Shown here in pieces: positions 1,287-54,658 of a DNA stretch of 64,000 bases. The stretch's first letter is position 1, and each line of letters begins with the position of its first letter. Made by a program: the position numbers and the translations under genes. The notes beneath the pieces are model-generated. The model saw nothing but the letters and a program-made list of their open reading frames with translations. It ran no database searches and had not been told where the DNA came from. Source of the stretch: Candidatus Zambryskiibacteriota bacterium (lineage in GTDB: Bacteria > Patescibacteriota > Minisyncoccia > Phycocordibacterales > WO2-35-19); NCBI GenBank assembly GCA_003233455.1, contig QILQ01000043.1, positions 442 to 64,441 of the forward strand. The letters run 5' to 3'.

Positions 1287-1892
1287 ATGAGTCATCCAAA
1301 AAAAGAAAGAACTTTAGTAGTGATAAAACCTGATGGAGTGCAGAGAACTCTTATTGGTGAAATAATAGGCAGATTTGAAAAAATAGGTTTAAAACTTGTG
1401 GGAATAAAAATGGTTGTTCTCACTGAAGATTTTATTGAAAAACATTATACTCTTAATCCTGAGTGGAGAAGAATTACCGGAGAAAAACGCGTAAAGGCAG
1501 CGAGAGAAAAAGGAGAAAAACTTCCAACAGAAGATCCGTTTGAAATAACAGCAGTTATTCTTGAAAAATTAAAAAAATATATGACCAGTGGACCGGTTTT
1601 GGCAATGGTTTGGCAGGGAGCTCATTCGGTGGAACTTGTTAGAAAAATTACTGGCGGGACTGAACCAAGAAGTTCTGATGTGGGCACTATTCGCGGGGAT
1701 TATGTTATTGATTCTTATAAAATGGCCGATGACGATGGTAGGGCAGTTAGAAATCTAATTCACGCTTCCGGCACGGTTGATGAAGCGGAAAAAGAAATAA
1801 AACATTGGTTTAAGGAAAATGAGCTTATAAATTATCGTTTAATTGCTGAACAAATTTTGTATGATGTAAATTTGGACGGGTTGTTGGAATAG
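1287..1892 (+). CDS. ndk: Nucleoside diphosphate kinase with ~40-aa internal insertion
   Basis: VIKPDGVQR, HASGTVDEAEKEI blocks of NDK family. Confidence 0.85.
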   Translation: MSHPKKERTLVVIKPDGVQRTLIGEIIGRFEKIGLKLVGIKMVVLTEDFIEKHYTLNPEWRRITGEKRVKAAREKGEKLPTEDPFEITAVILEKLKKYMTSGPVLAMVWQGAHSVELVRKITGGTEPRSSDVGTIRGDYVIDSYKMADDDGRAVRNLIHASGTVDEAEKEIKHWFKENELINYRLIAEQILYDVNLDGLLE

Positions 1893-1907
1893 TGATATAA
1901 TACAAGT
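1851..1907. repeat. Direct repeat copy 1 (ndk 3' end + downstream promoter-like TATAAT); copy 2 at 2794-2850
   Basis: ~57 bp, ~90% identical to 2794-2850, flanking the inserted 1908-2788 two-gene cassette. Confidence 0.7.
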
Positions 1908-2132
1908 ATGATATTTAGACAATCTTTGTTTTGGGATACGGATATTAAAAAAATAGATACTCAAAAGAATGCTCAATATATAATTGAGAGAATTTTTGAG
2001 TTTGGTCGAGATGATGAAGTTAGATGGCTTTGGAGTTTTTATAGTAAATCACTTTTAAAAGAGGTTGTTATTAAATCGAGATCTTTACGGTCTAGAACGA
2101 AAACATTATGGAATTTAATACTCCAAAATTAA
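1908..2132 (+). CDS. Small conserved protein (LFWDTD...IIERIFEFG family) that I recall being commonly paired with AbiEii-like nucleotidyltransferases; putative cognate antitoxin
   Basis: Sequence family recognisable from memory; 25-nt overlap with downstream NTase gene. Confidence 0.4.
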   Translation: MIFRQSLFWDTDIKKIDTQKNAQYIIERIFEFGRDDEVRWLWSFYSKSLLKEVVIKSRSLRSRTKTLWNLILQN

Positions 2133-2788
2133 ATGATGTAAATTTTTCTTGTTTATCTCATTCCACCAAAAAAGCTCTGGATTATTTATCAACTCAAAAT
2201 TGGTTGGATAATTCAAATTGGTATCTTGCCGGAGGTACTGCCCTAGCTTTACAGGTAGGAAATCGTAAATCTGTTGACTTGGATTTTTTTACTACCGACC
2301 AAAATTTTACATCAGAAAAAATATTAATAAATTTTTTAAATAATAAGAATTGGAAGACTGATTTTGACGAGCCAAATACTATTTATGGCGAGTTGTTTGA
2401 GTCTAAGATTAGTTTTATAGCATATCCATTCTTTATACCAAAACAAGAATTCATCAGATATGGTTTTGTAAAGATACTGAATAAAACAGATGTTGCTGTA
2501 ATGAAGGTGATAGCTATTTCTCAAAGAGGAAAAAAAAGAGATTTTTTTGATTTATATTGGTGCGTCAAAAATATTGAGTCACTAGAAAATATAATAAAGC
2601 GACTTCCTATACAATATCCATCAGTTGCTCATGATTATCATCATTTATTTAAAGCTTTGGTTTATTTTGATGATGCTGAGAATGATCCAGATCCAGTTAT
2701 CTTTTTTGATACCAACTGGAATAAGGTGAAAAGTTTTTTTCAGAAAGAAATTCCAATACTTACAAAAAAATTGATAAAATTAAACTAA
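2108..2788 (+). CDS. Nucleotidyltransferase AbiEii/AbiGii-family toxin (type IV TA)
   Basis: N-terminal LAGGTALALQVGNRKSVDLDFFT matches DUF1814/AbiEii hallmark GGTALALxLGHRxSxDLDxF. Confidence 0.65.
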   Translation: MEFNTPKLNDVNFSCLSHSTKKALDYLSTQNWLDNSNWYLAGGTALALQVGNRKSVDLDFFTTDQNFTSEKILINFLNNKNWKTDFDEPNTIYGELFESKISFIAYPFFIPKQEFIRYGFVKILNKTDVAVMKVIAISQRGKKRDFFDLYWCVKNIESLENIIKRLPIQYPSVAHDYHHLFKALVYFDDAENDPDPVIFFDTNWNKVKSFFQKEIPILTKKLIKLN

Positions 2789-2793
2789 TAAAA

Positions 2794-2850
2794 CAAATTT
2801 TATATGATGTAAATTTGGACGGGTTGTTGGAATAGGAGTATAATAGTAGT
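2794..2850. repeat. Direct repeat copy 2 of ndk 3' end/promoter segment
   Basis: See copy 1 at 1851-1907. Confidence 0.7.
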
Positions 2851-2854
2851 GGGA

Positions 2855-3045
2855 TTGTTTGGATATTTTCTAAGTTGCACATATTCAGGGAGGTCAATAT
2901 CTCTATAATATGATGAGCGCTCAGGTGTTCTGATTTTTATAGTTGAGACCACCCACCTAATATTTTTCAATTAGGGAATTATTTCAAGCAATCCCAACAA
3001 AACTCATCAATAGGTGAGTTTTGTTGGGGTATGTGGCTTTAGTAA
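2855..3045 (+). ncRNA. Candidate structured RNA/strong hairpin region (long-range GGGATTG/CAATCCC pairing plus 15-bp perfect stem CCAACAAAACTCA/TGAGTTTTGTTGG)
   Basis: Non-coding 250-bp gap with nested complementary segments; identity unknown. Confidence 0.2.
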
Positions 3046-3101: not shown

Positions 3102-3503
3102 ATGTTTAAAAAACCGCTCTTTTTAGAGATGTTTATTTTGTTGACCATAGTGGGAATACTTAATTATATTGCTACCATTTATCATCTTTATTGGTCTATT
3201 TATGAATTTGATAGTGTGGTTCATTTTTTTGGTGGCGCCACTTTATCAGCATTTTTCTTGTGGATTTATTTTTTTTCCGGTTTTTTTAATCCCCAAAATA
3301 GAAGTCTTAAACAATTTTTAATAATATCTATTATCGGAGCAATATTTATAGGTGTTTCTTGGGAAATTTTTGAGCTTTTTCTCGGGGAAGCGGTATTGCA
3401 AAAAGCTGACTATCCGTATGACACTATGATGGATTTAATAATGGATTTTTTAGGTGCTTTGGCTATATGTTTTTACGCTTTTATTAGAGAAATTAAAAAT
3501 TAA
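3102..3503 (+). CDS. Hypothetical polytopic membrane protein
   Basis: 133 aa, four hydrophobic segments, no recognised motif. Confidence 0.45.
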   Translation: MFKKPLFLEMFILLTIVGILNYIATIYHLYWSIYEFDSVVHFFGGATLSAFFLWIYFFSGFFNPQNRSLKQFLIISIIGAIFIGVSWEIFELFLGEAVLQKADYPYDTMMDLIMDFLGALAICFYAFIREIKN

Positions 3504-16648: not shown

Positions 16649-17111
16649 AGGATTTACTTTGATAGAGCTTCTCGTTGTTATCGCTATTATTGGGATACTT
16701 TCATCTATTATTCTTGGGAGTCTTAATAATGCCAGAGCTAGTGCTAGAGATTCAAAAAGAAAGCAAGAAATGATATCTATGCAAACAGCTCTTGAATTGT
16801 ATTATTTTGATAATGGTGTGTATCCTTCAACTAATGGTTCTTGGCGAGGGGCTGTTACATTTGGTAATTATGGAACAGGTGCAACAGGATATATTCCCGG
16901 GTTAGTTCCCAATTATATACCTGTTTTACCGTTAGATCCAAGTGGTACTAATGATGGATATCTCTATCGTTCTAATGGTACTAACTATAAATTGCTTTCA
17001 CATAAAAGTCCGGAGAGTTATCCTGCCCCTGGGACCAAATTTTATGATTCTGCCAGACCCACTTGGGCATGGAAGCTATGTAGTGGAGAACCTGCTTGTA
17101 GTAGTTGGTAA
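16635..17111 (+). CDS. Type IV pilin (prepilin, class III signal peptide)
   Basis: MKTSKGFTLIELLVVIAIIGIL N-terminus; paralog of 50175-50627. Confidence 0.75.
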   Translation: MKTSKGFTLIELLVVIAIIGILSSIILGSLNNARASARDSKRKQEMISMQTALELYYFDNGVYPSTNGSWRGAVTFGNYGTGATGYIPGLVPNYIPVLPLDPSGTNDGYLYRSNGTNYKLLSHKSPESYPAPGTKFYDSARPTWAWKLCSGEPACSSW

Positions 17112-17140
17112 AATTTATGTTGACTTCTTTTTGGAGTTTG
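17110..17140 (+). promoter_or_regulatory. Near-consensus sigma70-type promoter (TTGACT-16-TAATAT), copy 1 of a 31-bp direct repeat (copy 2 at 17526-17556 upstream of tuf)
   Basis: Identical 31-mer ttgacttctttttggagtttgttaatatata at both sites. Confidence 0.5.
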
Positions 17141-17179
17141 TTAATATATATATATATATTGATTTACACTAGAAATATT

Positions 17180-17392
17180 ATGATTAAAACAAAAACAAAA
17201 CTAAATATCACCTTAAAAGAAGCGAGCAGACTTTTTAAAGTTGCTAATAATTTTGCTGATATTTTTGAAGATTTTTTAGAGTCAAAAAAAATGTTTAGTT
17301 CTGAATTTACAAAAGGTTTGCAGACTTCTGTAGAACAAGCAAAATCAGGTCGCCTAAAGAAAATTTCTTCACTCTCAATATTAAAAAATTAA
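17180..17392 (+). CDS. Putative antitoxin-like small protein upstream of degraded RelE/ParE toxin
   Basis: 70-aa ORF; position relative to toxin remnant. Confidence 0.3.
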   Translation: MIKTKTKLNITLKEASRLFKVANNFADIFEDFLESKKMFSSEFTKGLQTSVEQAKSGRLKKISSLSILKN

Positions 17393-17395
17393 AAG

Positions 17396-17509
17396 GATTT
17401 AACCCACCTATATGGAGAGTAAGAATAGGAATTTATAGAATAATTTATTCTTTTGATAAAGATTTTATTATTTGTCTTAGGTTTAGACACAGAAAAGATA
17501 TATACAGAA
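17396..17509 (+). pseudogene. RelE/ParE toxin remnant (C-terminal half only: PIWRVRIGIYRIIYSFDKDFIICLRFRHRKDIYRNL)
   Basis: Clear RelE/ParE C-terminal signature in frame lacking any start; upstream frame blocked by TGA. Confidence 0.45.
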
Positions 17510-17525
17510 ATTTATGAATTTTTAT

Positions 17526-17556
17526 TTGACTTCTTTTTGGAGTTTGTTAATATATA
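17526..17556 (+). promoter_or_regulatory. tuf promoter (TTGACT-16-TAATAT), copy 2 of the 31-bp repeat
   Basis: See 17110-17140. Confidence 0.5.
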
Positions 17557-21483: not shown

Positions 21484-22332
21484 ATGGCAATAAAAAATTA
21501 CAAACCAACATCAAAATCAAGGAGACATATGTCTATTGTCTCTTATAAATCTATTTTAACTAAAAACAAACCTCTAAAAGCTCTCACTTCCGGCGTGAAG
21601 AGATCTGTCGGACGAAATAATGCGGGCAGGATAACAACGCGTCATAAAGGTGGCGGTCATAAGAGATTATTTAGAGAGATTGATTTTAAATACAACAAAA
21701 TCAATATTCCTTATAAAATAACTTCTGTGGAATATGACCCAAATCGCACCGGGTTTATCGGTATTGCTGTTTATGAAGATGGCGAGAAAAGATATATTCT
21801 TTTGCCAAAAAATATTAAAGTTGGCGAAAAACTTTTAACAGGAGAAAAGGCGGAAATAAAACAAGGTAATAGATTACCGTTAAAGAGTATACCGACTGGC
21901 GCTTTTGTTTATAATGTGGAACTAAAACCTCTTGGGGGAGCGAGAATTGCTCGTTCAGCCGGCAATTTTGTTCAAGTATTGGCTAAGGATGCTGGTTATG
22001 TTGATTTAAAAATGCCATCTAGTGAAATACGCAAAGTGAAAGAAACTTGTTGGGCCAGTATTGGCACGGTTTCAAATGAAGAAAAAAGACTTGAAAATTA
22101 TGGAAAGGCCGGAAAAAGCAGGTGGAAAGGTATTCGTCCAACAGTACGAGGTACCGCAATGAATCCGGTTGACCATCCGCATGGTGGCGGTGAAGGTAGG
22201 CAAGGCAGAGGCAGGAAACGAGCGGTTTCTAAATGGGGTAAACCAACCGGTAAAGGTCAAAAATCGCGACGCACTAAAAAATATTCTGATAAATTTATTA
22301 TTAGCAGAAGAAAAGTAGGCAAGAAGAGATAA
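21484..22332 (+). CDS. rplB: 50S ribosomal protein L2
   Basis: GTAMNPVDHPHGGGEG motif. Confidence 0.95.
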   Translation: MAIKNYKPTSKSRRHMSIVSYKSILTKNKPLKALTSGVKRSVGRNNAGRITTRHKGGGHKRLFREIDFKYNKINIPYKITSVEYDPNRTGFIGIAVYEDGEKRYILLPKNIKVGEKLLTGEKAEIKQGNRLPLKSIPTGAFVYNVELKPLGGARIARSAGNFVQVLAKDAGYVDLKMPSSEIRKVKETCWASIGTVSNEEKRLENYGKAGKSRWKGIRPTVRGTAMNPVDHPHGGGEGRQGRGRKRAVSKWGKPTGKGQKSRRTKKYSDKFIISRRKVGKKR

Positions 22333-22334
22333 TT

Positions 22335-22742
22335 ATGAATAATATAAAAATTTCACTGATTGATATTGATAAAAGAAAAAAGCTGAATATAAGATCCGGA
22401 GATACAGCGCGTGTTACTCAAAAAATAATTGAAAAAGATAAAAAGACCGGCAAGCCAAAAACCAGATTGCAGGATTTTGAAGGATTATGTTTGGCAGTCA
22501 AGCACGGTAAAGAAGCCGGAGGCACTTTTACTTTGAGAAAAGTGGCGTCAGGGGTGGGAGTTGAAAGAATTTTTCCAATTTATTCTCCAATGATAGAAAA
22601 AATAAAAATAATTAAACGCTCCAAAGTTCGTCGCGCCAAACTTTATCATATTCGTGATAAAGCGGCTAAAGAAATTCGTCGTCAAATGAGAAATGTCAGA
22701 GCTTTACCTAAAGTGGAAGAAATTGAACTTGACACAAAATAA
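22335..22742 (+). CDS. rplS: 50S ribosomal protein L19 (unusual position directly after rplB)
   Basis: RSGDTARV...FEGLCLAVKHG...GVGVERIFPIYSP...VRRAKLYHIR matches L19. Confidence 0.8.
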   Translation: MNNIKISLIDIDKRKKLNIRSGDTARVTQKIIEKDKKTGKPKTRLQDFEGLCLAVKHGKEAGGTFTLRKVASGVGVERIFPIYSPMIEKIKIIKRSKVRRAKLYHIRDKAAKEIRRQMRNVRALPKVEEIELDTK

Positions 22743-22841
22743 CTCCTTCACTCATTCATTCACTCACTCTTCATTTTTGGTCTACTAATGGGAACACCTC
22801 ACCCCTCGCTTCGCGTAGGAGAGGGGAAAGAAAAACTTAAC
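22728..22841. repeat. 114-bp direct repeat copy 1 (rplS 3' end + GGGTGAGG palindromic element); copy 2 at 23668-23784
   Basis: Near-identical (3-bp indel) copies flank the HD-domain gene. Confidence 0.75.
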
Positions 22842-22893: not shown

Positions 22894-23541
22894 TTAAAGC
22901 ACTTTTAGATTTTCTGCAATTTTTAACATTTCAGAAATACTCTTGTCTTCTAATGATTCTTTCACATTATTCCAAAGAGCAAGATTTGTTTTTGCCCAAT
23001 TCAAATATTTTGTTTTTGCTAAATCAGTATAAAAATAAATTCCTTCGTCCAGTAATTTATTTTGTTCAGAAGTAATTTTATTTGCTAGCTTTTGTATATC
23101 TATTTTATTTTGTTTGATATAATTATTTGTAAATAAAATTGGTGTAATTGGTAAAGACTTGAACAAAGTATCGGCATCACTTAATGATTTTCCTTCATTT
23201 GAAATATTTTGATTTCTAATTGCAGTATGAGCTTCCATAATTATATTTTCAATTTTGATGATTTCCTCATCAGAATATCCGCTTTTAATCAAAATATTAT
23301 TACGGTAACTATTCGCTTCTTCAGGTTCAGAATTAACTTTTACAATATAATTCAAATCATGAACAAGTGCCGCTGACTCAACAAAAAATAAATTGGCGTT
23401 GATTGATTTAGCAAAAACAATTGCTTTATTTTTTACAAAAACAATATGGTGCCATCCATGAAAAAGTAGTTTTTTACTTTTTTTTAAGTATACCTTTTCA
23501 AGGTTTAAAGTTAAATTATTTATCTTGCTTTTTTGTTTCAT
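22894..23541 (-). CDS. HD-domain phosphohydrolase-like protein
   Basis: HGWHH...VHD...SDAD matches H..H/HD/D motif set of the HD superfamily. Confidence 0.55.
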   Translation of the reverse strand: MKQKSKINNLTLNLEKVYLKKSKKLLFHGWHHIVFVKNKAIVFAKSINANLFFVESAALVHDLNYIVKVNSEPEEANSYRNNILIKSGYSDEEIIKIENIIMEAHTAIRNQNISNEGKSLSDADTLFKSLPITPILFTNNYIKQNKIDIQKLANKITSEQNKLLDEGIYFYTDLAKTKYLNWAKTNLALWNNVKESLEDKSISEMLKIAENLKVL

Positions 23542-23667
23542 AACCCAGGTGCACCAATCTTTTGTTATATATTATACAAACTCAATATATAATTATTACA
23601 TAAACTGTAAATAATCATACTATCAAGATTATTTTACTGATTTTTATAAAATTATGCAACAAAAATA

Positions 23668-23784
23668 CTTGACACAAAATAACTCCTTCACTCATTCATT
23701 CACTCACTCTTCATTTTTGGTCTACTAATGGGAACACCTCACCCCTCGCTTCGCGTATAAGGAGAGGGGAAAGAAAAACTTAAC
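23668..23784. repeat. Direct repeat copy 2 (see 22728-22841)
   Basis: Direct comparison. Confidence 0.75.
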
Positions 23785-36947: not shown

Positions 36948-37289
36948 ATGTCACGATCACTTAAAAAAGGCCCTTATGTTGATGAAAGGGTGCTCAAAAA
37001 AATAGAAGGCAAAAAACCTGCAGATACTGCGGTTATTAAGACTTGGTCTAGAGCTTGTGCTATTGCTCCTGAGATGATTGGTTTCACTTTTGGAGTGCAT
37101 AATGGCAGGGAACATATTGAAGTTTTTGTCACAGAAGATATGGTTGGTCATAAACTTGGAGAATTTTCTTTGACTCGCAAATTTATAAAACATGGAGGTA
37201 AGATGCAAAAAGAACTTGAAGCCAAGAAAAAAGAAGATGAAATAAAAGCGGCTAAATCCGCTAAAGCGACATCTGAATCAAAAAAATAA
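36948..37289 (+). CDS. rpsS: 30S ribosomal protein S19 with Lys-rich C-terminal tail
   Basis: SLKKGPYVD...[28 protein letters not shown]. Confidence 0.85.
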
Positions 37290-37405
37290 GTTAAACATAC
37301 AAATATGCAAATGATGCAAATAATACAAATGAATGCTAATCCATATCCAAATTATATTCGTAGTTATTCGTTGATTAGTATAATTAGTAGATTGGTATAT
37401 TAAAA
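37290..37405. repeat. ~115-bp intergenic element copy 1, starts at rpsS stop codon (copy 2 at 39752-39865)
   Basis: Near-identical (1 mismatch) to copy 2; contains conserved 32-codon [35 protein letters not shown]. Confidence 0.7.
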
Positions 37406-37443
37406 CGGCACAATTAAATAGCTATAGACAATCTCCCAGAAAA

Positions 37444-37797
37444 GTGAGATTAGTAGCCGATACCATTAGAGGTATATCTACCAAAGAAGCTAGAATTAAA
37501 TTGGATTTTATAACTAAACGAGCCGCTGGTCCGTTAGGTAAACTTCTAAACTCCGCTATTGCTAACGCGAAAAATTTAGGTGCTGATATGGATAATCTTT
37601 GGATTAAAACTATTACTGTTAATGGTGGCAGAATATTATACAGACGCAGACCAGTTTCTCACGGCTCGGCTCATCCTATTCGTAAACGCACTTCGCGTAT
37701 TACTGTTGTTTTGGCGGAAAAACAAAAAACCGCAACTCAAAAAACCAAATTAGAAGCTGAAAAATTCGCGCTTAATCAACCAACAAGTAAAAAATAA
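37444..37797 (+). CDS. rplV: 50S ribosomal protein L22 (true start probably ~35 nt upstream at a non-ATG codon)
   Basis: Upstream in-frame sequence encodes ...SYRQSPRKVRLVADTIRG, the conserved L22 N-terminus, with no ATG. Confidence 0.8.
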   Translation: MRLVADTIRGISTKEARIKLDFITKRAAGPLGKLLNSAIANAKNLGADMDNLWIKTITVNGGRILYRRRPVSHGSAHPIRKRTSRITVVLAEKQKTATQKTKLEAEKFALNQPTSKK

Positions 37798-37801
37798 AAT
37801 T

Positions 37802-38461
37802 ATGACTCACACAGTACACCCATATGCTCATAGATTAGGTATTATTCGCGATTGGAAATCGCGTTGGTTTGAGGTGAAATCCAAATATAAAGAAAATTTA
37901 AAAAAGGATGTCCTAATTTTTGAATATCTTAAAAAGCGTCTAAAAGGATTTTTTGTAAATTCTATTGAAATTGAAAGAAGTGTTAAAACTTTTAGAATTA
38001 TTATTGAAACCTCTCGTCCCGGACTTATTATTGGCAGAAGTGGCGAAGGTATGAATAAACTTAGAGAAGACATTATTCATTTTATAAAGAAACGCGATTT
38101 AAATTCTAGAGAAGAATTAAAAATAGATGTGAAAGAGGTAAAATCACCGGAATCAAATGCTATGATAGTAGCTCAAATGATAGCTGAAGGGCTTGAAAAA
38201 AGAATGCCTTTCAGAAGGGTAATGAAAACTATGATTGAAAAAGCTTTTGCTAATCGTGATGTAAAAGGGGTTAAAATTTCTCTTTCTGGTATGCTTGGTG
38301 GTTCAAAAATGGCTAGATTAGAGTCTAAAAAGATTGGTCGAATTCCTTTGCAAACATTACGTGCCGATATTGATTATGCAAAATATGAAGCTCTTCAACC
38401 ACTTGGAAAAATCGGCATAAAAGTTTGGATTTATAAAGGTGAGATTTTTGATAAAAAATAA
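37802..38461 (+). CDS. rpsC: 30S ribosomal protein S3
   Basis: KH domain RPGLIIGRSG. Confidence 0.9.
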   Translation: MTHTVHPYAHRLGIIRDWKSRWFEVKSKYKENLKKDVLIFEYLKKRLKGFFVNSIEIERSVKTFRIIIETSRPGLIIGRSGEGMNKLREDIIHFIKKRDLNSREELKIDVKEVKSPESNAMIVAQMIAEGLEKRMPFRRVMKTMIEKAFANRDVKGVKISLSGMLGGSKMARLESKKIGRIPLQTLRADIDYAKYEALQPLGKIGIKVWIYKGEIFDKK

Positions 38462-38473
38462 TTCTTAATTATT

Positions 38474-38893
38474 ATGTTATTTCCTAAAAAAATTAAACAT
38501 AGAAAGTGGCAAACTATGCGCAAGAATCCTAAAAAAGTCGGACCGGCAACTCGTGGCATCAAAGTATCTTTTGGGTCGTATGGTCTTAAAGCAATGACTC
38601 CTGGCAGAATTACTTCCAATCAGATTGAATCTGCCAGAAAAGCCATAACTAAATCTATAAGTAAAACTGGTAGAGTTTGGATACGCATTTTTCCTGATAT
38701 GCCTTTTACCAAAAAACCGGCGGAAGTGAAGATGGGTAAAGGTAAGGGAGATTTAGAGGGATATCACGCTAAAGTTTTATCTGGACAAATTATATTTGAA
38801 GTTGATGGAGCCTCAAATTCTTTATCTATTGAGTCTTTGCGTAAAGGTGGCACCAAGATGCCAATAAAAACTAGAATTGTGGCTCGCAATTAA
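38474..38893 (+). CDS. rplP: 50S ribosomal protein L16
   Basis: KHRKWQ...GRI family signature. Confidence 0.9.
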
Positions 38894-38906
38894 AATATTT
38901 AATTAA

Positions 38907-39089
38907 ATGAAAAAAGGATTATTAAAAAAGAATAAAGATGATTTAATGAAAGAATTAGACGAAAAACGTCTTTCTTTGCGCGATATTAGATTTGGTATTG
39001 CTGGAAGTAAAAGTAAAAATGTTAAAGAACAAAAAACAATAAAAAAAGATATTGCCAGAATAATGACTGAATTAAGAATTATGAATTAA
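38907..39089 (+). CDS. rpmC: 50S ribosomal protein L29
   Basis: Size, position, ELRxxxxxELxxxLxxLRF pattern. Confidence 0.8.
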   Translation: MKKGLLKKNKDDLMKELDEKRLSLRDIRFGIAGSKSKNVKEQKTIKKDIARIMTELRIMN

Positions 39090-39094
39090 GAATT

Positions 39095-39367
39095 ATGAAT
39101 GAAAAAAAAGAAAAAAAGAATATAAATAAGGAAAAGAAAACAAACGGTAAAATTTTAAGCGGAGTAGTAATATCGGCTAAAATGCGAGATACTTGTACTG
39201 TTTTGGTTAGCAGATTTATAAAGCATAAAAAATACAGAAAATATTATAAAGTAAGCAAAAAATATAAAGCGCATGATGCTGGCAATATTAAAAAAGTGAG
39301 AGATAAAGTTAAGATAATGGAATGTCGCCCCATTTCTAAAGATAAACATTTTATGATAATAAATTAA
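39095..39367 (+). CDS. rpsQ: 30S ribosomal protein S17
   Basis: GVVISAKMRDTCTVLV...KYKAHD pattern. Confidence 0.85.
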   Translation: MNEKKEKKNINKEKKTNGKILSGVVISAKMRDTCTVLVSRFIKHKKYRKYYKVSKKYKAHDAGNIKKVRDKVKIMECRPISKDKHFMIIN

Positions 39368-39373
39368 AAAATT

Positions 39374-39751
39374 ATGATTCAGCCCCAAACAATAATAAAA
39401 ATAGCGGATAATTCAGGTGCCAAATTGGGGCGAGTATTTAAGGTATTGGGTAGTTCTAAAAAAAGATACGCCAGAGTGGGAGAGTTGGTTATCTTTTCTG
39501 TTCAAAAGGCAGAGCCCCGCAAAGAAATTAAAAAGAAAGCGGTGCTTTTGGGTTTAATTGTTCGCCAAAAAGCTCCACTTAGAAGAAAAGACGGTTCTTA
39601 TATTCGTTTTGATGAAAATGCGGCTGTTGTGGTAGAGCGAAAAAAAGGCGAGATTATTCCCAAAGCCGGAAGAATATTTGGTCCGATACCGAGAGAAATC
39701 GCTGAAGCGGGATATCAAGCTATTGTTTCTTTGGCACCTGAAATAATTTAG
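39374..39751 (+). CDS. rplN: 50S ribosomal protein L14
   Basis: MIQPQTIIKIADNSGAK. Confidence 0.9.
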   Translation: MIQPQTIIKIADNSGAKLGRVFKVLGSSKKRYARVGELVIFSVQKAEPRKEIKKKAVLLGLIVRQKAPLRRKDGSYIRFDENAAVVVERKKGEIIPKAGRIFGPIPREIAEAGYQAIVSLAPEII

Positions 39752-39865
39752 TTAAACATACAAATATGCAAATGATGCAAATGATACAAATGAATGCTAA
39801 TCCATATCCAAATTATATTCGTAGTTATTCGTTGATTAGTATAATTAGTAGATTGGTATATTAAA
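39752..39865. repeat. ~115-bp element copy 2, starts at rplN stop codon
   Basis: See 37290-37405. Confidence 0.7.
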
Positions 39866-39868
39866 TTT

Positions 39869-40093
39869 ATGAAAATCAAAAAAGGAGACAAAGTAAAAAT
39901 AATAACAGGTAAAGACAAAGGTAAAACAGGTGTTGTTTTAAAAGCGTATCCTAAAGATTTTTTAGTATTGGTTGAAAATATAAACAAGAAAAAAATTCAT
40001 CAAAAACCGAGAAAACAAGGAGAAAAAGGTAAAATAATAGAACAATCAGCACCGATACATGTATCAAATGTTAAAAAGATTAAGGATAAGTAA
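39869..40093 (+). CDS. rplX: 50S ribosomal protein L24 (short form)
   Basis: [25 protein letters not shown] motif. Confidence 0.75.
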
Positions 40094-40096
40094 AAT

Positions 40097-40145
40097 AATA
40101 ACCCCACCTCAACCCCTTCCCAAAGAGGAGGGGCGAAAAGAGGAG
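40097..40145. repeat. Degenerate CCCCACCTCAACCCCTTCC...GAGGAGGGG palindromic repeat
   Basis: Family member between rplX and rplE. Confidence 0.45.
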
Positions 40146-40167
40146 AATAAAGATAACAAAAATCAAA

Positions 40168-40716
40168 ATGAAATTAATGAAAGAAAAAACAAAAGAAGCT
40201 TTTAAAGAACTCAAAAAACAATTGGGTTTAAAAAATATTATGCAATCTCCGAAAATTGTTAAAGTGGTTATCAATTCCGGAGTTGGTTCTCTTAGCGATA
40301 AAAAGAAAATAGATATGATAATAGACAGACTGGCTAAAATAACCGGTCAAAAAGCCATTAAAAGAGGAGCTAAGAAATCGGTTGCTTCTTTTAAATTAAG
40401 AGAAGGAGATATTGTTGGAGTTCAAATTACTTTACGAGGAGAAAAGATGTGGAGTTTTTTAGACCGTCTTTTTAGTATCGCTTTGCCTCGGACTAAAGAT
40501 TTTAGAGGTATTTCTCTTAAAGCAATAGATGAAATGGGTAATTATACTCTGGCTATCAGAGAACATACTGTATTTCCGGAAACTTCAGATGAAGATTTAA
40601 AGGATATTTTTAGTTTTGCCGTTACTATTGTCACAAATTTAAAAGGCAAAAATGAAGCTTTGGAATTTTTTAAGGCTCTTAGTTTTCCTTTTAAAAAAGC
40701 TACGACCAAAAAATAA
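40168..40716 (+). CDS. rplE: 50S ribosomal protein L5
   Basis: L5 family blocks. Confidence 0.9.
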   Translation: MKLMKEKTKEAFKELKKQLGLKNIMQSPKIVKVVINSGVGSLSDKKKIDMIIDRLAKITGQKAIKRGAKKSVASFKLREGDIVGVQITLRGEKMWSFLDRLFSIALPRTKDFRGISLKAIDEMGNYTLAIREHTVFPETSDEDLKDIFSFAVTIVTNLKGKNEALEFFKALSFPFKKATTKK

Positions 40717-50175: not shown

Positions 50176-50627
50176 TGAATAAATTTAAAAATAAAAAAGG
50201 TTTTACACTTATTGAACTTCTGGTGGTTATTACCATAATAGGAGTTTTATCCACTATTATTTTAGGCAGTATTTCAAATTCAAGAAATAAGGCTTATAAT
50301 TCAAAAATAGAGCAACAACTTAGCGGTTTTCGCACTGCTGCGGAGATATATTTTACCAATCAAACTCCAAATGGCTATGGTCCAGCCAGCAGTATTTGTA
50401 GTGCGGGTATTTTTAATAATGTTGACCCCATAAATGGCAGTCCCGGTTTATATATAGCGGCAGGCAATCTTCCAGATTTTAGTCAAGTAGTTTGTGGTTC
50501 TACTGATTCATCTTACGCTGTCAAAGCTACTCTGTATTCCGGAAATAAATATTGGTGTGTGGATAATAAAGGATCTTCAAGATTAATATCTGGTGCTATT
50601 GGTAATACGGTTACTTTTTGTCCATAA
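50175..50627 (+). CDS. Type IV pilin (major-pilin paralog)
   Basis: KGFTLIELLVVITIIGVL; C-terminal Cys pair. Confidence 0.75.
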   Translation: MNKFKNKKGFTLIELLVVITIIGVLSTIILGSISNSRNKAYNSKIEQQLSGFRTAAEIYFTNQTPNGYGPASSICSAGIFNNVDPINGSPGLYIAAGNLPDFSQVVCGSTDSSYAVKATLYSGNKYWCVDNKGSSRLISGAIGNTVTFCP

Positions 50628-50709: not shown

Positions 50710-53700
50710 TTAAAGATCAATATTAGTTTCAAAAATTTTATCAAGTTCAAGATTAATCGCTTTTTTTATACTTTCAATTTTTTTATATTTTTCTGCAATT
50801 TCTTTTTGTGCTTGTAAATCAAAATTTTCCTGATTATCAATAGGGATTTGAACTTTAATGTTTTCAATTTGATTTGTACCAAGTTTTTTGTTCCCATAAC
50901 CTTTTGCTTTATCAAAGAATAATGGTTGAATTATGAATTTAATATATTCAAGACAAAGATCATCTTTTCTAGGAATTAAAATGCCACAATGATTGTTTAT
51001 AGTGAAAAAATATTCTTCTTTCTTTTCTTGCAACAAATTCTCTGAATTGCGAACAAATAATTTGCCTGCATAACCATCTACAGACCACGTCAAACAATAT
51101 TGATAATATAAATCATTTTTATTTATTTTATCCAAATCCATTTTCATTAATAATCCTTCATTTTTTGTATTTGATGAATAAACTGGGATGTTACCTTTCC
51201 ATCCATTACCAATTACTCTTTTTTTTGTATAAAATGCGTTACCTTGCTTAATGTTAAAAAGATCATCAATTTTTATCAATTTTGTTTTTTGATCATTTAT
51301 TTTTATCTCAACCATTAAATCCTTGATTTGTTTTTTATATTCTTCAACTTTTTGTTTAACTTCTTTTATTATTTGATATTTATCTAAGATATTTTTTTGA
51401 AAATCTAAATCAAAATCACCATTTGAATCGATTGGTATTTGAACTACAACATCTTTCATGTTTTTCAATGACGATCTTAATCCTCTATCAAATCCATATT
51501 TATGTTTAACTTTCGAAAGTTGTAACATTAAATATTCTGGTAGAATATTATCTGTTAATATTCTAATAACACCACAGTGATCCGTCGTCATAAATGGAGT
51601 GTTTTTTTTGATAAAATTGAATTCAAAATCACCATCAATCCCCCAAATAACAAAATCATTTTCAAAATTTTCTATATTACTTTTAAAATGATAACCAACT
51701 GGATTAAAAACATTAGCACTATAAATTGGAATATTACCACTAATTTTTACTAAATCTTTTTTTACCAACCTTTTACCTATAAATAAATCAAAATATTTCT
51801 TGTCTGATAAAAATATTTCTTTAAAAGAATTTTTTAACTTTTTTTTTTCGCCAAACTCTTTTACAAGCTGACTAAATTCATTAAGAGATTCGGAAATATC
51901 ACCTATCAATTCTCCAAATTCTTGTACTCCAACTATTTTATCTTCTTCTAAAATGCCAAGTTCTATTTTTTCCTCTTTACTCCACCACCTATCAACTGAC
52001 CAATGTTGTTCTGGATTAAATTTATCTATTGATTGAATTTTACATCTTTTATCAGAATTATTTTCAATAAAATATTCTGGACTTCCTTTAAATCCTTTAA
52101 ATAATTTTACAGCTTCTTGTAAATCGTTTTGTTCAATATCAAAACGATAAATATCCCTTGACTCTCCAATCTCACTTACCAAATAAGTAAATACTGGTTT
52201 TTTTTGAATATCTTTTTTGTTTGTTTTCTTTGTAATTGCTAAAATATAAGTTTTCTTTGGAGTAGTGAAAAATGTTTTTATCGGTAGTGAAATAATTCCG
52301 TCAATATAACATTCATCTAAAATAAACTTTCTTAAATTTTTATCATTTTGACGATTTAAAATTCCGTCAGGAATTACTACAAATGCTTTTCCACCTGGTT
52401 TTAATGCTTTCACAATCCACTCCATAAAAAGTCCTTCAACCCCCATAGCATTGATTTTGTAATAATTTTCAAGTTCTCCGTCTTTTTTTATTTCGTCTTT
52501 TAAATTTCCGCTACCACTAGTTACATACGGAGGATTGGTTAAAATTAAATTATATTCATTTTCAACGGGTTCTGAAAGTGTTCCAAGAATAGAATTTGTT
52601 TTAAGAGTAAAGCTATCATTAAATAATTTTGCAAATTCTTGTGTTAGATTTGGATTGTCTTTTATTAAATCAGAAAAATAAATCAGCATATTGGCTTTTG
52701 CCAAAATAATTGTTTTCTGTTCATCTTTATCAAAACCTTTATCAAAGCCATGAATAGCTATCTTTGAAACAATTTTATCTTTTTTAATATTATAAAAATC
52801 TTCAAGTCTTGTCGTTAATGGCTCTAAAAGGAATTTACCAACTCCGCAAGCAGGATCACAAATACTTACTCCTTCCTTTATATCGTCTTTTGCCATTTCG
52901 ACAATAGAACGAACAACTTTTAATGGGGTGAAAAACTGTCCCCAGTTTTTCTTACTAATACTTTCCTTCAAAAAACTCTCAAAAATCTGACTTTTGAAGT
53001 CATAATCAATATTTTCTAATTTTCCATATTTCAGAAATTTATCTAAAACAGTTTTAAAAGTCGTACTATATCCTTTAACAGCTTTTTGATCTTTATTTAC
53101 AAAAATTGTTCCATTGATAATAGTAGTTTTATCTTCTGTGTCTTGTGGAAATAATTGTTTAATTTTTGGACGAATTGTTGTTGCGTAGTGTTCTAATACT
53201 TCGTTTTCTGTATTACCACCATCATACATTTTAATGAGAGTATAAAAATTATGGACTCCTTTTAAAACATCTAAGTCACTAAGATATTTGAAAATGAAAA
53301 GTTCAACAAAAGTATAAAGACAATTTTCAGGAGTTGCTCCACTTACAGACCAAATATCTTGCCAAATGCTTTTTGCCAAATTTGTTGGATTTACAAATTC
53401 TTTTGGTTTTATATTATCAGTTTGCTCATTTATAGAATCATAAACTTTTTTTAATAATTCTGGTAGTTTTTCAGCTCTTGAATCAAATAAAACTTTAATT
53501 TCTTTTCCATTTTCATCTTTAATCCTATTCCCAGTTAAAGCATTTATCCAAATAGCTTCTTTTGTGTCTGTAGCAATAAAAATTTTAGCTCCCAATTTTT
53601 TAGCAACTTCAATTTCCTGTTCAATAGCTTTACTATGATCTTTTGCTGTCTTAAATTTTTTAGGAATTTTATATTCAATAACTGCAATAACATTTTTATT

Positions 53701-53874
53701 CTGTACCATGAGAGCATCAACTTTTTTTCTTTCAAAAGCTCCATAATTAACATTACGAATAATATTTGATTCTTTTAGAGCTTTTACTGTTGTTGCTCCA
53801 ATATTATAAAAATCCCATTTCCCAATTTTCTCTGGGTTTTTTATTAAATCCCTTTGTAGAAGTTCTTCACTCAT
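50710..53874 (-). CDS. Single-chain restriction-modification enzyme: N-terminal PD-(D/E)xK nuclease, gamma-class N6-adenine MTase, two HsdS-like target-recognition domains (Type IIB/IIG-like)
   Basis: D...VIEYK (PD-ExK), FFTP, DPACGVGKFL (motif I), NPPY (motif IV), two TRD-terminal QIPID..FDL..QK.I..KY conserved blocks. Confidence 0.65.
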   Translation of the reverse strand: MSEELLQRDLIKNPEKIGKWDFYNIGATTVKALKESNIIRNVNYGAFERKKVDALMVQNKNVIAVIEYKIPKKFKTAKDHSKAIEQEIEVAKKLGAKIFIATDTKEAIWINALTGNRIKDENGKEIKVLFDSRAEKLPELLKKVYDSINEQTDNIKPKEFVNPTNLAKSIWQDIWSVSGATPENCLYTFVELFIFKYLSDLDVLKGVHNFYTLIKMYDGGNTENEVLEHYATTIRPKIKQLFPQDTEDKTTIINGTIFVNKDQKAVKGYSTTFKTVLDKFLKYGKLENIDYDFKSQIFESFLKESISKKNWGQFFTPLKVVRSIVEMAKDDIKEGVSICDPACGVGKFLLEPLTTRLEDFYNIKKDKIVSKIAIHGFDKGFDKDEQKTIILAKANMLIYFSDLIKDNPNLTQEFAKLFNDSFTLKTNSILGTLSEPVENEYNLILTNPPYVTSGSGNLKDEIKKDGELENYYKINAMGVEGLFMEWIVKALKPGGKAFVVIPDGILNRQNDKNLRKFILDECYIDGIISLPIKTFFTTPKKTYILAITKKTNKKDIQKKPVFTYLVSEIGESRDIYRFDIEQNDLQEAVKLFKGFKGSPEYFIENNSDKRCKIQSIDKFNPEQHWSVDRWWSKEEKIELGILEEDKIVGVQEFGELIGDISESLNEFSQLVKEFGEKKKLKNSFKEIFLSDKKYFDLFIGKRLVKKDLVKISGNIPIYSANVFNPVGYHFKSNIENFENDFVIWGIDGDFEFNFIKKNTPFMTTDHCGVIRILTDNILPEYLMLQLSKVKHKYGFDRGLRSSLKNMKDVVVQIPIDSNGDFDLDFQKNILDKYQIIKEVKQKVEEYKKQIKDLMVEIKINDQKTKLIKIDDLFNIKQGNAFYTKKRVIGNGWKGNIPVYSSNTKNEGLLMKMDLDKINKNDLYYQYCLTWSVDGYAGKLFVRNSENLLQEKKEEYFFTINNHCGILIPRKDDLCLEYIKFIIQPLFFDKAKGYGNKKLGTNQIENIKVQIPIDNQENFDLQAQKEIAEKYKKIESIKKAINLELDKIFETNIDL

Positions 53875-54209: not shown

Positions 54210-54658
54210 ATGTTTAAATTAAGAAATAAAGGTTTTACACTTATTGAACTTCTAGTGGTTATCGCTATTATTGGTATTCTTTCTTCCGTTGTTTTAGCGT
54301 CTCTAAACACCGCTCGTGGTAGAGGTAATGATGCTAAAGTTAAAGCTCAGCTTTCCGGTCTTCGGGTCTTCGTGCCGCTGCTGAACTCTATTATGATGAT
54401 AATCCAACTCAGGGTTATGGTCCCGCATCTTCCAGTTGTACAACTGGTATGTTTGCTAATGCGACTGTTCAAGCTTATATCGCTCCCGCTAATCTTCCAG
54501 CTAACGCTACCCCGGCATGTTTCTCTTCTACCGGTAGTTATGCGGTTACAACCAAACTTCCTGGCGCAGGTGGTGCTAACAAATGGTGTGTTGATTCACT
54601 TGGTGTTTCTAAGCAAGTTATCGGTATCGCTACTTCGGCTGGTTGTCCCGCTTCCTAA
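54210..54658 (+). pseudogene. Type IV pilin paralog inactivated by 8-bp tandem duplication (GGTCTTCG x2 at 54357-54372)
   Basis: N-terminus KGFTLIELLVVIAIIGIL in frame 1; C-terminal pilin homology (KWCVDSLG...) in +2 frame; duplication visible. Confidence 0.65.

Follow-up and report, generated by a model that had tools for sequence, protein, structure and literature searches.

Nobusato et al. reportedly described, in 2000, the insertion of restriction-modification cassettes with long target duplication. Furuta, Abe and Kobayashi (2010; NAR 38:2428, PMC2853133) presented such insertions as recombinase-independent events of unexplained mechanism. The inserts they describe lack mobility genes, their hosts are mostly naturally competent, and DNA cleavage by the cassette itself was proposed as the trigger (PMC2853133). 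In a case from H. influenzae, the flanking 46-bp repeats are identical at 44 of 46 positions, and one of them overlaps 15 bp of the upstream gene's 3′ end. Here we examine a 64,000-nucleotide stretch (the window) of contig QILQ01000043.1 from a metagenome-assembled Candidatus Zambryskiibacteriota bacterium, in which ndk, the gene for nucleoside diphosphate kinase, is followed by a two-gene cassette encoding a DUF6922 protein and an AbiEii-type nucleotidyltransferase. In our reading, to which we assign a probability of roughly 0.6, this toxin-antitoxin cassette was inserted, from promoter to stop codon, directly after the ndk stop codon by insertion with long target duplication.

The cassette is bracketed by a direct repeat. 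A repeat search aligned positions 1849-1912 with 2792-2855 over 64 gapless nucleotides at 88% identity and a spacing of 943 nt. In its first part, 1849-1892 and 2792-2835 agree at 43 of 44 positions in direct orientation, the one difference being synonymous. Copy 1 (1849-1892, + strand) consists of the last 14 ndk codons and the stop TAG and is the functional gene end. Copy 2 (2792-2835, +) is a displaced, non-coding ndk tail whose frame differs from that of the nucleotidyltransferase gene and which has no open reading frame (ORF) upstream. Chance cannot account for it, as only a handful of equally long repeats occur in the 64 kb. Both copies carry the synonymous codons GGG TTG TTG GAA, which differ in all relatives, and we conclude from these shared lineage-specific codons that the two tails derive from each other within the window's lineage.

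Relatives reveal the site without the cassette. A search with Ndk as query gave us 80 loci in metagenomes and another 80 in GTDB species genomes (~160 in total, numbered with the prefix L), all of them Patescibacteria of the Parcubacteria/Paceibacteria group, and we established synteny by tblastn of the window proteins. The nearest named relative is Candidatus Zambryskibacteria, with an Ndk 85% identical. The order common to these loci is map, ndk, a structured RNA, a membrane-protein gene and a beta-CASP gene; in the window it reads ndk, a 74-amino-acid ORF, a 226-amino-acid ORF, ~250 nt of non-coding DNA, the gene for a 133-amino-acid membrane protein (3102-3503, +; a downstream neighbour conserved by synteny) and the beta-CASP gene. 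From the ndk stop to the membrane-protein gene, the window measures 1210 nt, whereas the gap is 184-255 nt in close empty-site relatives (Ndk 72-91%; L002, L003, L005/L082, L007/L084, L028 and L030), for instance 208 nt in L002 (Ndk 91%), 238 nt in L003 (88%) and 214 nt in L005/L082 (85%). The Ndk tail itself, ILYDVNLDG(I/L)LE*, is kept in all ~150 relatives; in the window, ndk (1287-1892, +; 201 amino acids; Pfam NDK, E = 1.2e-38) retains it whole, ending ...ILYDVNLDGLLE*. A first-pass annotation, made from the letters of the window, had expected relatives lacking the cassette to hold a single copy of the repeated segment, and this is what we found: one ndk tail, with no second copy in any empty-site close relative. 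An empty site with a single ndk tail identifies the window cassette as an insertion accompanied by target duplication. The insert is also AT-richer than its flanks (28.3% GC versus 36.3% in ndk). Two further direct repeats lie near ndk in other loci. That of L139 was rejected as an insertion because it flanks a small gene together with the conserved beta-CASP gene, and that of L097 flanks a GC-rich gene on the minus strand.

Could the repeat be a product of assembly, or of chance or convergent similarity? The window comes from a metagenome assembly, and the sole other contig, Ga0212224_1000125 from JGI (L001), is 99.95% identical to it over 7.9 kb with the same structure and may stem from the same population or the same reads. 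L001 represents the window's own population and so offers no independent test of the empty site. The two repeat copies, however, differ by one base and have different flanks, and 44 nt lies below typical k-mer and read lengths, which makes a mis-join unlikely. The NCBI and JGI assemblies differ by a 4-nt indel elsewhere in the sequence, suggesting that they were assembled separately, and a match of 43 in 44 is not attainable by chance in 64 kb. We find this explanation barely credible.

The inserted genes form an overlapping two-gene operon. An extended −10 box, TGATATAAT (1893-1901, +), stands 6 nt before the ATG of the DUF6922 gene (1908-2132, +; 74 amino acids beginning MIFRQSLFWDTD; Pfam PF21956, E = 8.6e-20), the putative antitoxin. 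Overlapping this ORF by 25 nt is that of the putative toxin, the 226-amino-acid AbiEii-type nucleotidyltransferase (2108-2788, +; Pfam PF08843, E = 2.8e-14; PADLOC AbiEii, E = 3.2e-9), which scores 54.1 bits against Pfam AbiEii (cut-off 22.5) and has readable nucleotidyltransferase motifs, GGTALALQ...DLDFF and KVIAISQRGKKRDFFD. It has 3073 homologues at E < 1e-10, the named ones being from Patescibacteria or candidate-phyla bacteria. The best non-self homologue is 75% identical, a distance implying that the cassette is not a recently spreading element. The DUF6922 protein is partnered with the nucleotidyltransferase in every other cassette locus examined; it matches Pfam DUF6922 alone, with no match in NCBIfam or PADLOC, and no paper in the library searched mentions DUF6922. 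Among described systems, the pair resembles AbiE/MenAT type IV toxin-antitoxin modules in its toxin family, its nucleotidyltransferase motifs and its overlapping two-gene operon with a small upstream gene. Unlike in those modules, where the antitoxin is AbiEi, with an N-terminal winged helix-turn-helix and a C-terminal domain, the window partner is the 74-amino-acid DUF6922 protein, and the toxin and antitoxin roles assigned here are putative readings of the sequence. Tested as AbiE type IV, the locus thus has the nucleotidyltransferase (DUF1814) domain, and the cognate AbiEi antitoxin upstream is absent.

Homologous cassettes elsewhere help to place the ends of the insert. The nearest, L162/L163, lies at an unrelated locus beside a reverse transcriptase and a type IV secretion system (T4SS) coupling protein, and its protein is 75% identical. 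The window reads TGATATAAT-ACAAGT-ATG versus TGATATAAT-GAAGGT-ATG in L162/L163; other cassette contexts read TGGTACAAT-N6-ATG (L164) and TGATAAAAT-N9-ATG (L172). This spacing of 6 nt to the ATG suggests, as a prediction from sequence, a leaderless cassette mRNA. In pairwise alignment, DNA homology between the window and L162 cassettes extends from TGATATAAT to the toxin stop codon, which corresponds exactly to the two junctions. The repeat copies are identical at 41 of 42 positions up to the ndk stop and at 10 of 15 in the following 15 nt (Fisher p = 0.0036), and the hexamer TATAAT accounts for six of those ten matches. The 18 nt after the stop of copy 1 match the L162 cassette promoter at 15 of 18 positions and copy 2 at 11 of 18. 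Together, the fall in identity at the stop and the closer kinship of the copy 1 promoter with L162 delimit a duplication of 44 bp that ends at the ndk stop. It is thus quite probable that the insert, missing in empty-site relatives, comprises the 899 nt of 1893-2791 (+), beginning with its own −10 box and ending 3 nt beyond the toxin stop, that the target duplication is 44 bp long, and that the two TATAAT segments are independent look-alike promoters.

These boundaries revise the earlier description in part. The first-pass annotation had reported flanking repeats of ~90% identity, and 1851-1907 against 2794-2850 does give 51 of 57 (89.5%); the genes it placed between them, a small LFWDTD-family gene and an AbiEii nucleotidyltransferase, are DUF6922 and AbiEii by Pfam. 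It had also held that 57 bp including the TATAAT segment were duplicated. We rejected a duplication of 57-64 bp with TATAAT on the two grounds just given: 44 bp of it are secure, and the TATAAT that follows copy 1 seems to have come with the cassette. The target-duplicating insertion that it proposed therefore stands as an insertion and as a duplication, but not in size and content, nor as a transposon-like signature, there being no transposase, integrase or terminal inverted repeats. One further sequence is shared with the repeat. The 13-mer ATGATGTAAATTT has exact matches in the window only at 1861-1873, 2133-2145 and 2804-2816. Two of these lie inside the repeat copies, and the third (2133-2145, +, from an exact-match search) sits at the DUF6922/nucleotidyltransferase junction, where, stretched to 17 nt, it matches copy 2 at 16 of 17 positions and where the L162 cassette differs at six of nine bases. 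This third copy may be due to chance, may mark a micro-conversion tract or may have served as a pairing anchor.

The genome holds other inserts between direct repeats. On L001, 2.3 kb upstream of ndk and past the window's left edge, a 73-nt direct repeat with one indel (L001:3696-3768 and L001:4292-4364) brackets hicB-hicA. It contains a hairpin and a −10 box, TGGTATGAT, which lies 7 nt before the hicB ATG in copy 1 and 8 nt before a 59-amino-acid ORF in copy 2; no empty-site relative was found for this site among the fetched loci. At the tuf promoter, 51 nt are repeated at 82% identity (17100-17150 and 17506-17556) around a 31-nt identical core, TTGACTTCTTTTTGGAGTTTGTTAATATATA. Between the copies lie an antitoxin-like ORF (17161-17392) and a RelE/ParE C-terminus with a frameshift (~17405-17510), which make up a decayed RelE-like pair. 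L181 has one copy of the tuf promoter and no insert; L178 has, at the same site, a Phd/PemK pair, upstream of which the −35 part of the promoter is partly copied. A third site carries a perfect 91-nt repeat (22727-22817 and 23667-23757; ~118 nt if a 3-nt indel is allowed) that begins in the last four rplS codons and brackets a minus-strand HD(IG)-like gene (22894-23541). In L178-L180, rplS is followed by 220 nt, a tRNA and a cobalamin adenosyltransferase gene, so the HD-like gene, missing there, is an insertion; these loci are too diverged to display the single-copy state of the 91-nt repeat. The repeat spacing here (940 nt, against 943 nt at ndk) looks coincidental. The repeats of these loci are unlike one another in sequence and length, which fits a process that is not site-specific.

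Repeats do not accompany every accessory module. Between map and ndk lies a pair formed by a 67-amino-acid ORF and a weakly ParE-like 84-amino-acid ORF (816-1273), which is absent from relatives. Neither this pair nor a Gp49/HigB-like gene with its HTH partner (L001:3037-3676) has flanking direct repeats. In all, four toxin-antitoxin modules lie within 5 kb among conserved housekeeping genes (adk, map and ndk). The suggestion that the same junction structure might recur at other toxin-antitoxin loci was thus borne out for HicBA and the RelE-like pair at tuf, but not for the ParE-like pair or for nine loci of the cassette's own family (three contexts). Accordingly, flanking repeats were rejected as a general trait of DUF6922/AbiEii cassettes (0 of 9 loci).

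Three further features of this genome involve repeats or split gene clusters. A 125-nt repeat at 97% identity (37280-37404 and 39741-39865) is found immediately downstream of both rpsS and rplN; it has promoter-like TTGATT...TATAAT motifs and brackets rplV, rpsC, rplP, rpmC, rpsQ and rplN within the ribosomal protein operon, with no accessory insert. A 1054-amino-acid N6-adenine methylase fusion resembling type IIG restriction-modification enzymes (50710-53874, −) sits inside a type IV pilus cluster between two pilin genes, the 5′ ends of which (50193-50265 and 54225-54297) form a 73-nt repeat at 78% identity. That repeat could be due to paralogy or to another insertion with duplication. The ribosomal protein supercluster is split (window 21484-22742 and 36948-40716; L001:1-2349): rplB is followed by rplS (L19), an adjacency common to the window and L178-L181, rpsS through rplE lie 14 kb away from rplB-rplS, and the region upstream of ndk holds rplR, rpsE, secY, adk and map.

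How does the ndk event compare with known classes of insertion? By the structural definition in PMC2853133, the insert is absent in a relative, where a single copy aligns with both repeats; the repeats are direct and exceed 30 bp; and the insert is shorter than 20 kb and lacks mobile-element genes. The window insert has all of these features, measured against relatives that are other species (Ndk ≤91%) and not conspecific strains. Its cargo, by contrast, is a toxin-antitoxin-like pair and not a complete restriction-modification system. Like restriction-modification insertions, it is a small selfish cassette of atypical GC content without a mobility gene, at a site that is empty in relatives, with a repeat of more than 30 bp over the upstream gene's 3′ end. 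It differs in its cargo, in its uncultured Patescibacteria host and in the presence of at least three further repeat-flanked inserts within ~70 kb. The event fits best as an insertion with long target duplication, if that class is taken in a wider, structural sense, and so is one of a known kind.

A transposase-type staggered cut with fill-in would formally be expected to leave a direct target duplication, and an integron-type cassette would be another route. We found no integrase, transposase or IntI in the insert, beside it or among the 37 window ORFs scanned, and no terminal inverted repeats; the single inverted repeat near an end is internal and 70% complementary. The known target-site duplications of transposons are several-fold shorter than 44 bp. 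A transposon was rejected on these three counts. The repeat folds into a weak 7-bp hairpin (−3.3 kcal/mol, z −1.6 to −2.4), too weak for an attC-like site, which was rejected as well. Tested as an integron cassette, the insert has neither an attC-like hairpin nor an IntI, and its neighbours are housekeeping genes. Both routes appear very improbable.

Integrative elements at gene 3′ ends offer a closer layout. As in 3′-end integrative and cis-mobilisable elements, the insert lies between direct repeats of which the left one supplies the end of the target gene, and the repeat length is typical of att identity segments (also discussed in PMC2853133). Such an origin would posit a 943-bp circle, comprising the cassette and one 44-bp att-like copy, that integrated by a recombinase acting in trans or by a single Campbell-type crossover and left attL and attR. 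Yet neither the insert and its neighbours nor the 37 ORFs scanned encode an integrase, and related cassettes in three other contexts lack both ndk-like sequence and flanking repeats, so the locus does not behave as an att-type element. The repeats of this genome's loci share no sequence and measure 44, 51, 73 and 91 nt. The element's copy, moreover, agrees with this host at 43 of 44 positions, although synonymous sites of the ndk tail vary by lineage. Unlike integrative elements, the insert is only 0.9 kb long and has no integrase and no shared att, and the repeats at other loci are unrelated. Site-specific integration by a trans-acting recombinase encoded elsewhere in the genome is disfavoured, and we judge integration of a circle, by either route, to be distinctly unlikely.

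A different precedent is C-terminal displacement in Rhs, contact-dependent inhibition (CDI) and type VI secretion system (T6SS) effector-immunity loci (Jackson et al. 2009; Kirchberger et al. 2017, PMC5361080), a model put forward for Rhs and T6SS arrays (PMC5361080). By homology-facilitated illegitimate recombination, a conspecific donor fragment in which the 3′ part of ndk runs straight into the cassette would recombine by homology inside ndk at its left end; its right end would join illegitimately 44 bp upstream of the recipient's stop and push the resident ndk tail downstream. This route predicts what is seen in Rhs/CDI/T6SS arrays and here alike: an intact gene end, new genes next to it and an orphaned old gene end downstream. 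The left junction lies exactly at the stop, and the lone difference between the copies is at a synonymous site. In the known arrays, however, displacement affects a variable toxin tip along with its immunity gene and the arrays grow, whereas here a 44-bp housekeeping tail was duplicated once. Near-identical copies demand a conspecific donor, and a donor with the cassette next to ndk is not known: the arrangement occurs in none of 160 related loci. The HicBA and tuf duplications, too, are non-coding promoter or terminator segments with no conserved gene to serve as anchor. On balance, displacement is the main rival to our reading, and it strikes us as unlikely.

At the target site in relatives, the −10 box TATAAT of the downstream structured RNA (window 2839-2844, +) lies 3 nt past the ndk stop. 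The arrangement TAG-nnn-TATAAT-N6-(A/G)GG is kept at the ndk/RNA junction in all nine aligned relatives, and the seemingly intergenic DNA from ndk to the membrane-protein gene is conserved across the same alignment. In this clade, the final ndk codons double as the upstream region of the RNA's −10 box, and the junction lacks spare DNA. Other inserts between ndk and the RNA are present in at least 12 distinct lineages (L010/L088, L017/L090, L019, L025/L027/L095, L032, L060, L107, L115, L138, L141, L154 and L161), so that the RNA starts 484 to ~3200 nt past the ndk stop. Unrelated inserts in so many lineages mark the junction as an insertion hotspot. Duplication as a general property of this hotspot was rejected, given these insert-bearing relatives without an ndk-tail copy; it is specific to the window's lineage. 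Taken with the repeat-free cassette contexts elsewhere, these inserts indicate that duplication is neither required at the site nor typical of the cassette.

Several points weigh against our reading. An ndk-tail copy before the RNA is absent from all of the at least 12 lineages with other inserts, and flanking repeats are absent from nine loci that represent three independent contexts of the same cassette family. A same-species empty-site allele was not found by exact-protein look-ups with Ndk, DUF6922, the membrane protein and L19, which returned just the NCBI and JGI contigs of one population, or nothing; the pre-insertion sequence is reconstructed from other species with Ndk at most 91% identical. 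The class is defined on restriction-modification genes, and the trigger proposed for it, the cassette's own nuclease, is inapplicable to a toxin-antitoxin cassette that does not cleave DNA. As to length, an alignment with two 1-nt indels carries the repeat through TATAATA, so that a longer duplication of about 53-57 bp is a less likely alternative. Finally, we infer the joining mechanism; microhomology at the junctions could not be shown with the donor sequence missing.

Insertion with long target duplication would proceed here as follows. The target would be the coding end of ndk where it abuts the RNA's −10 box. Non-homologous DNA, probably taken up by type-IV-pilus competence, would be joined illegitimately to the chromosome at two points in crossed order, so that the stretch of target lying between these joints would afterwards flank the insert on either side; the same outcome would follow from a staggered break or from a template switch during replication. 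The event would duplicate 44 bp, one copy completing ndk and the other preceding the RNA's −10 box. In a compact genome, variants in which the ndk end is preserved along with the −10 box and the sequence natively upstream of it would persist more readily. Transcription of the cassette would then probably start from the extended −10 box that it carries, giving a leaderless mRNA, and the cassette would act as an addictive module. The window encodes the type IV pilus components PilB, PilC, PilM, PilN and PilO, a prepilin peptidase and pilins, a set compatible with DNA uptake and no proof of it.

The RNA beside which the cassette landed is conserved in its own right. It occupies ~145 nt followed by a terminator-like hairpin (2851-3031, +); in relatives, it starts 6 nt past TATAAT, with ~145 conserved nucleotides followed by a variable hairpin with a T-run. 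An nhmmer profile located it in ~90 relatives (for example L002:734-877 and L005:5622-5765), in most close ones ~16 nt past the ndk stop. It always lies directly upstream of the membrane-protein gene, even where other DNA parts it from ndk. The RNA folds into a rod with a minimum free energy of −64.7 kcal/mol (z = −5.7). Across 35 aligned sequences, standard pairs fill 97% of the proposed pair cells, and 18 of 30 pairs have changed on both sides, compared with 10.5 ± 1.5 in shuffles (0 of 500 reach 18) and at most 8 double-sided changes in slid registers. Fold and covariation together establish a genuine structured RNA. Rfam returned no match even at E ≤ 10. Its constant place ahead of the membrane-protein gene makes it a 5′ leader or else a small RNA; it is a candidate for a new leader, riboswitch or small RNA, and it may be a more novel object than the insertion itself. 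Some members have an apical AUGAUGAG...UUCUGA module resembling a kink-turn. The membrane protein carries a precomputed PF09997/DUF2238 label that our own Pfam scans did not reproduce. A possible link of the RNA to yjdF/DUF2238 riboswitches is a tentative lead, for which a literature search gave no paper.

The locus is a clean, datable case of a toxin-antitoxin cassette without a mobility gene entering a very compact genome. It did so where ndk's end overlaps the promoter region of the following transcript, and it broke neither. With this case, the class of insertions with long target duplication takes in toxin-antitoxin cargo and reaches the candidate phyla radiation. With a cargo that has no DNA-cleaving activity, the cassette's own nuclease becomes less likely as the cause of such events, and host recombination or repair of imported DNA more likely. 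Because the process recurs at several loci of a single genome, it can be counted in metagenome-assembled genomes. In practical terms the finding is of modest significance, and current views are not overturned.

A broader possibility, which we put forward tentatively and with more doubt than confidence, is that accessory genes of Patescibacteria routinely enter by a recombinase-independent, probably competence-fed route that leaves target duplications of 40-120 bp. If so, the favoured landing places would be those at which the next promoter directly adjoins a gene end or terminator, and the duplication would give the newcomer room without breaking either neighbour; at the HicBA and tuf sites, a duplicated promoter copy appears to drive the newcomer. 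The four inserts within ~70 kb would then be the visible recent fraction of this traffic, and the repeat-less hotspot inserts of relatives its decayed products.

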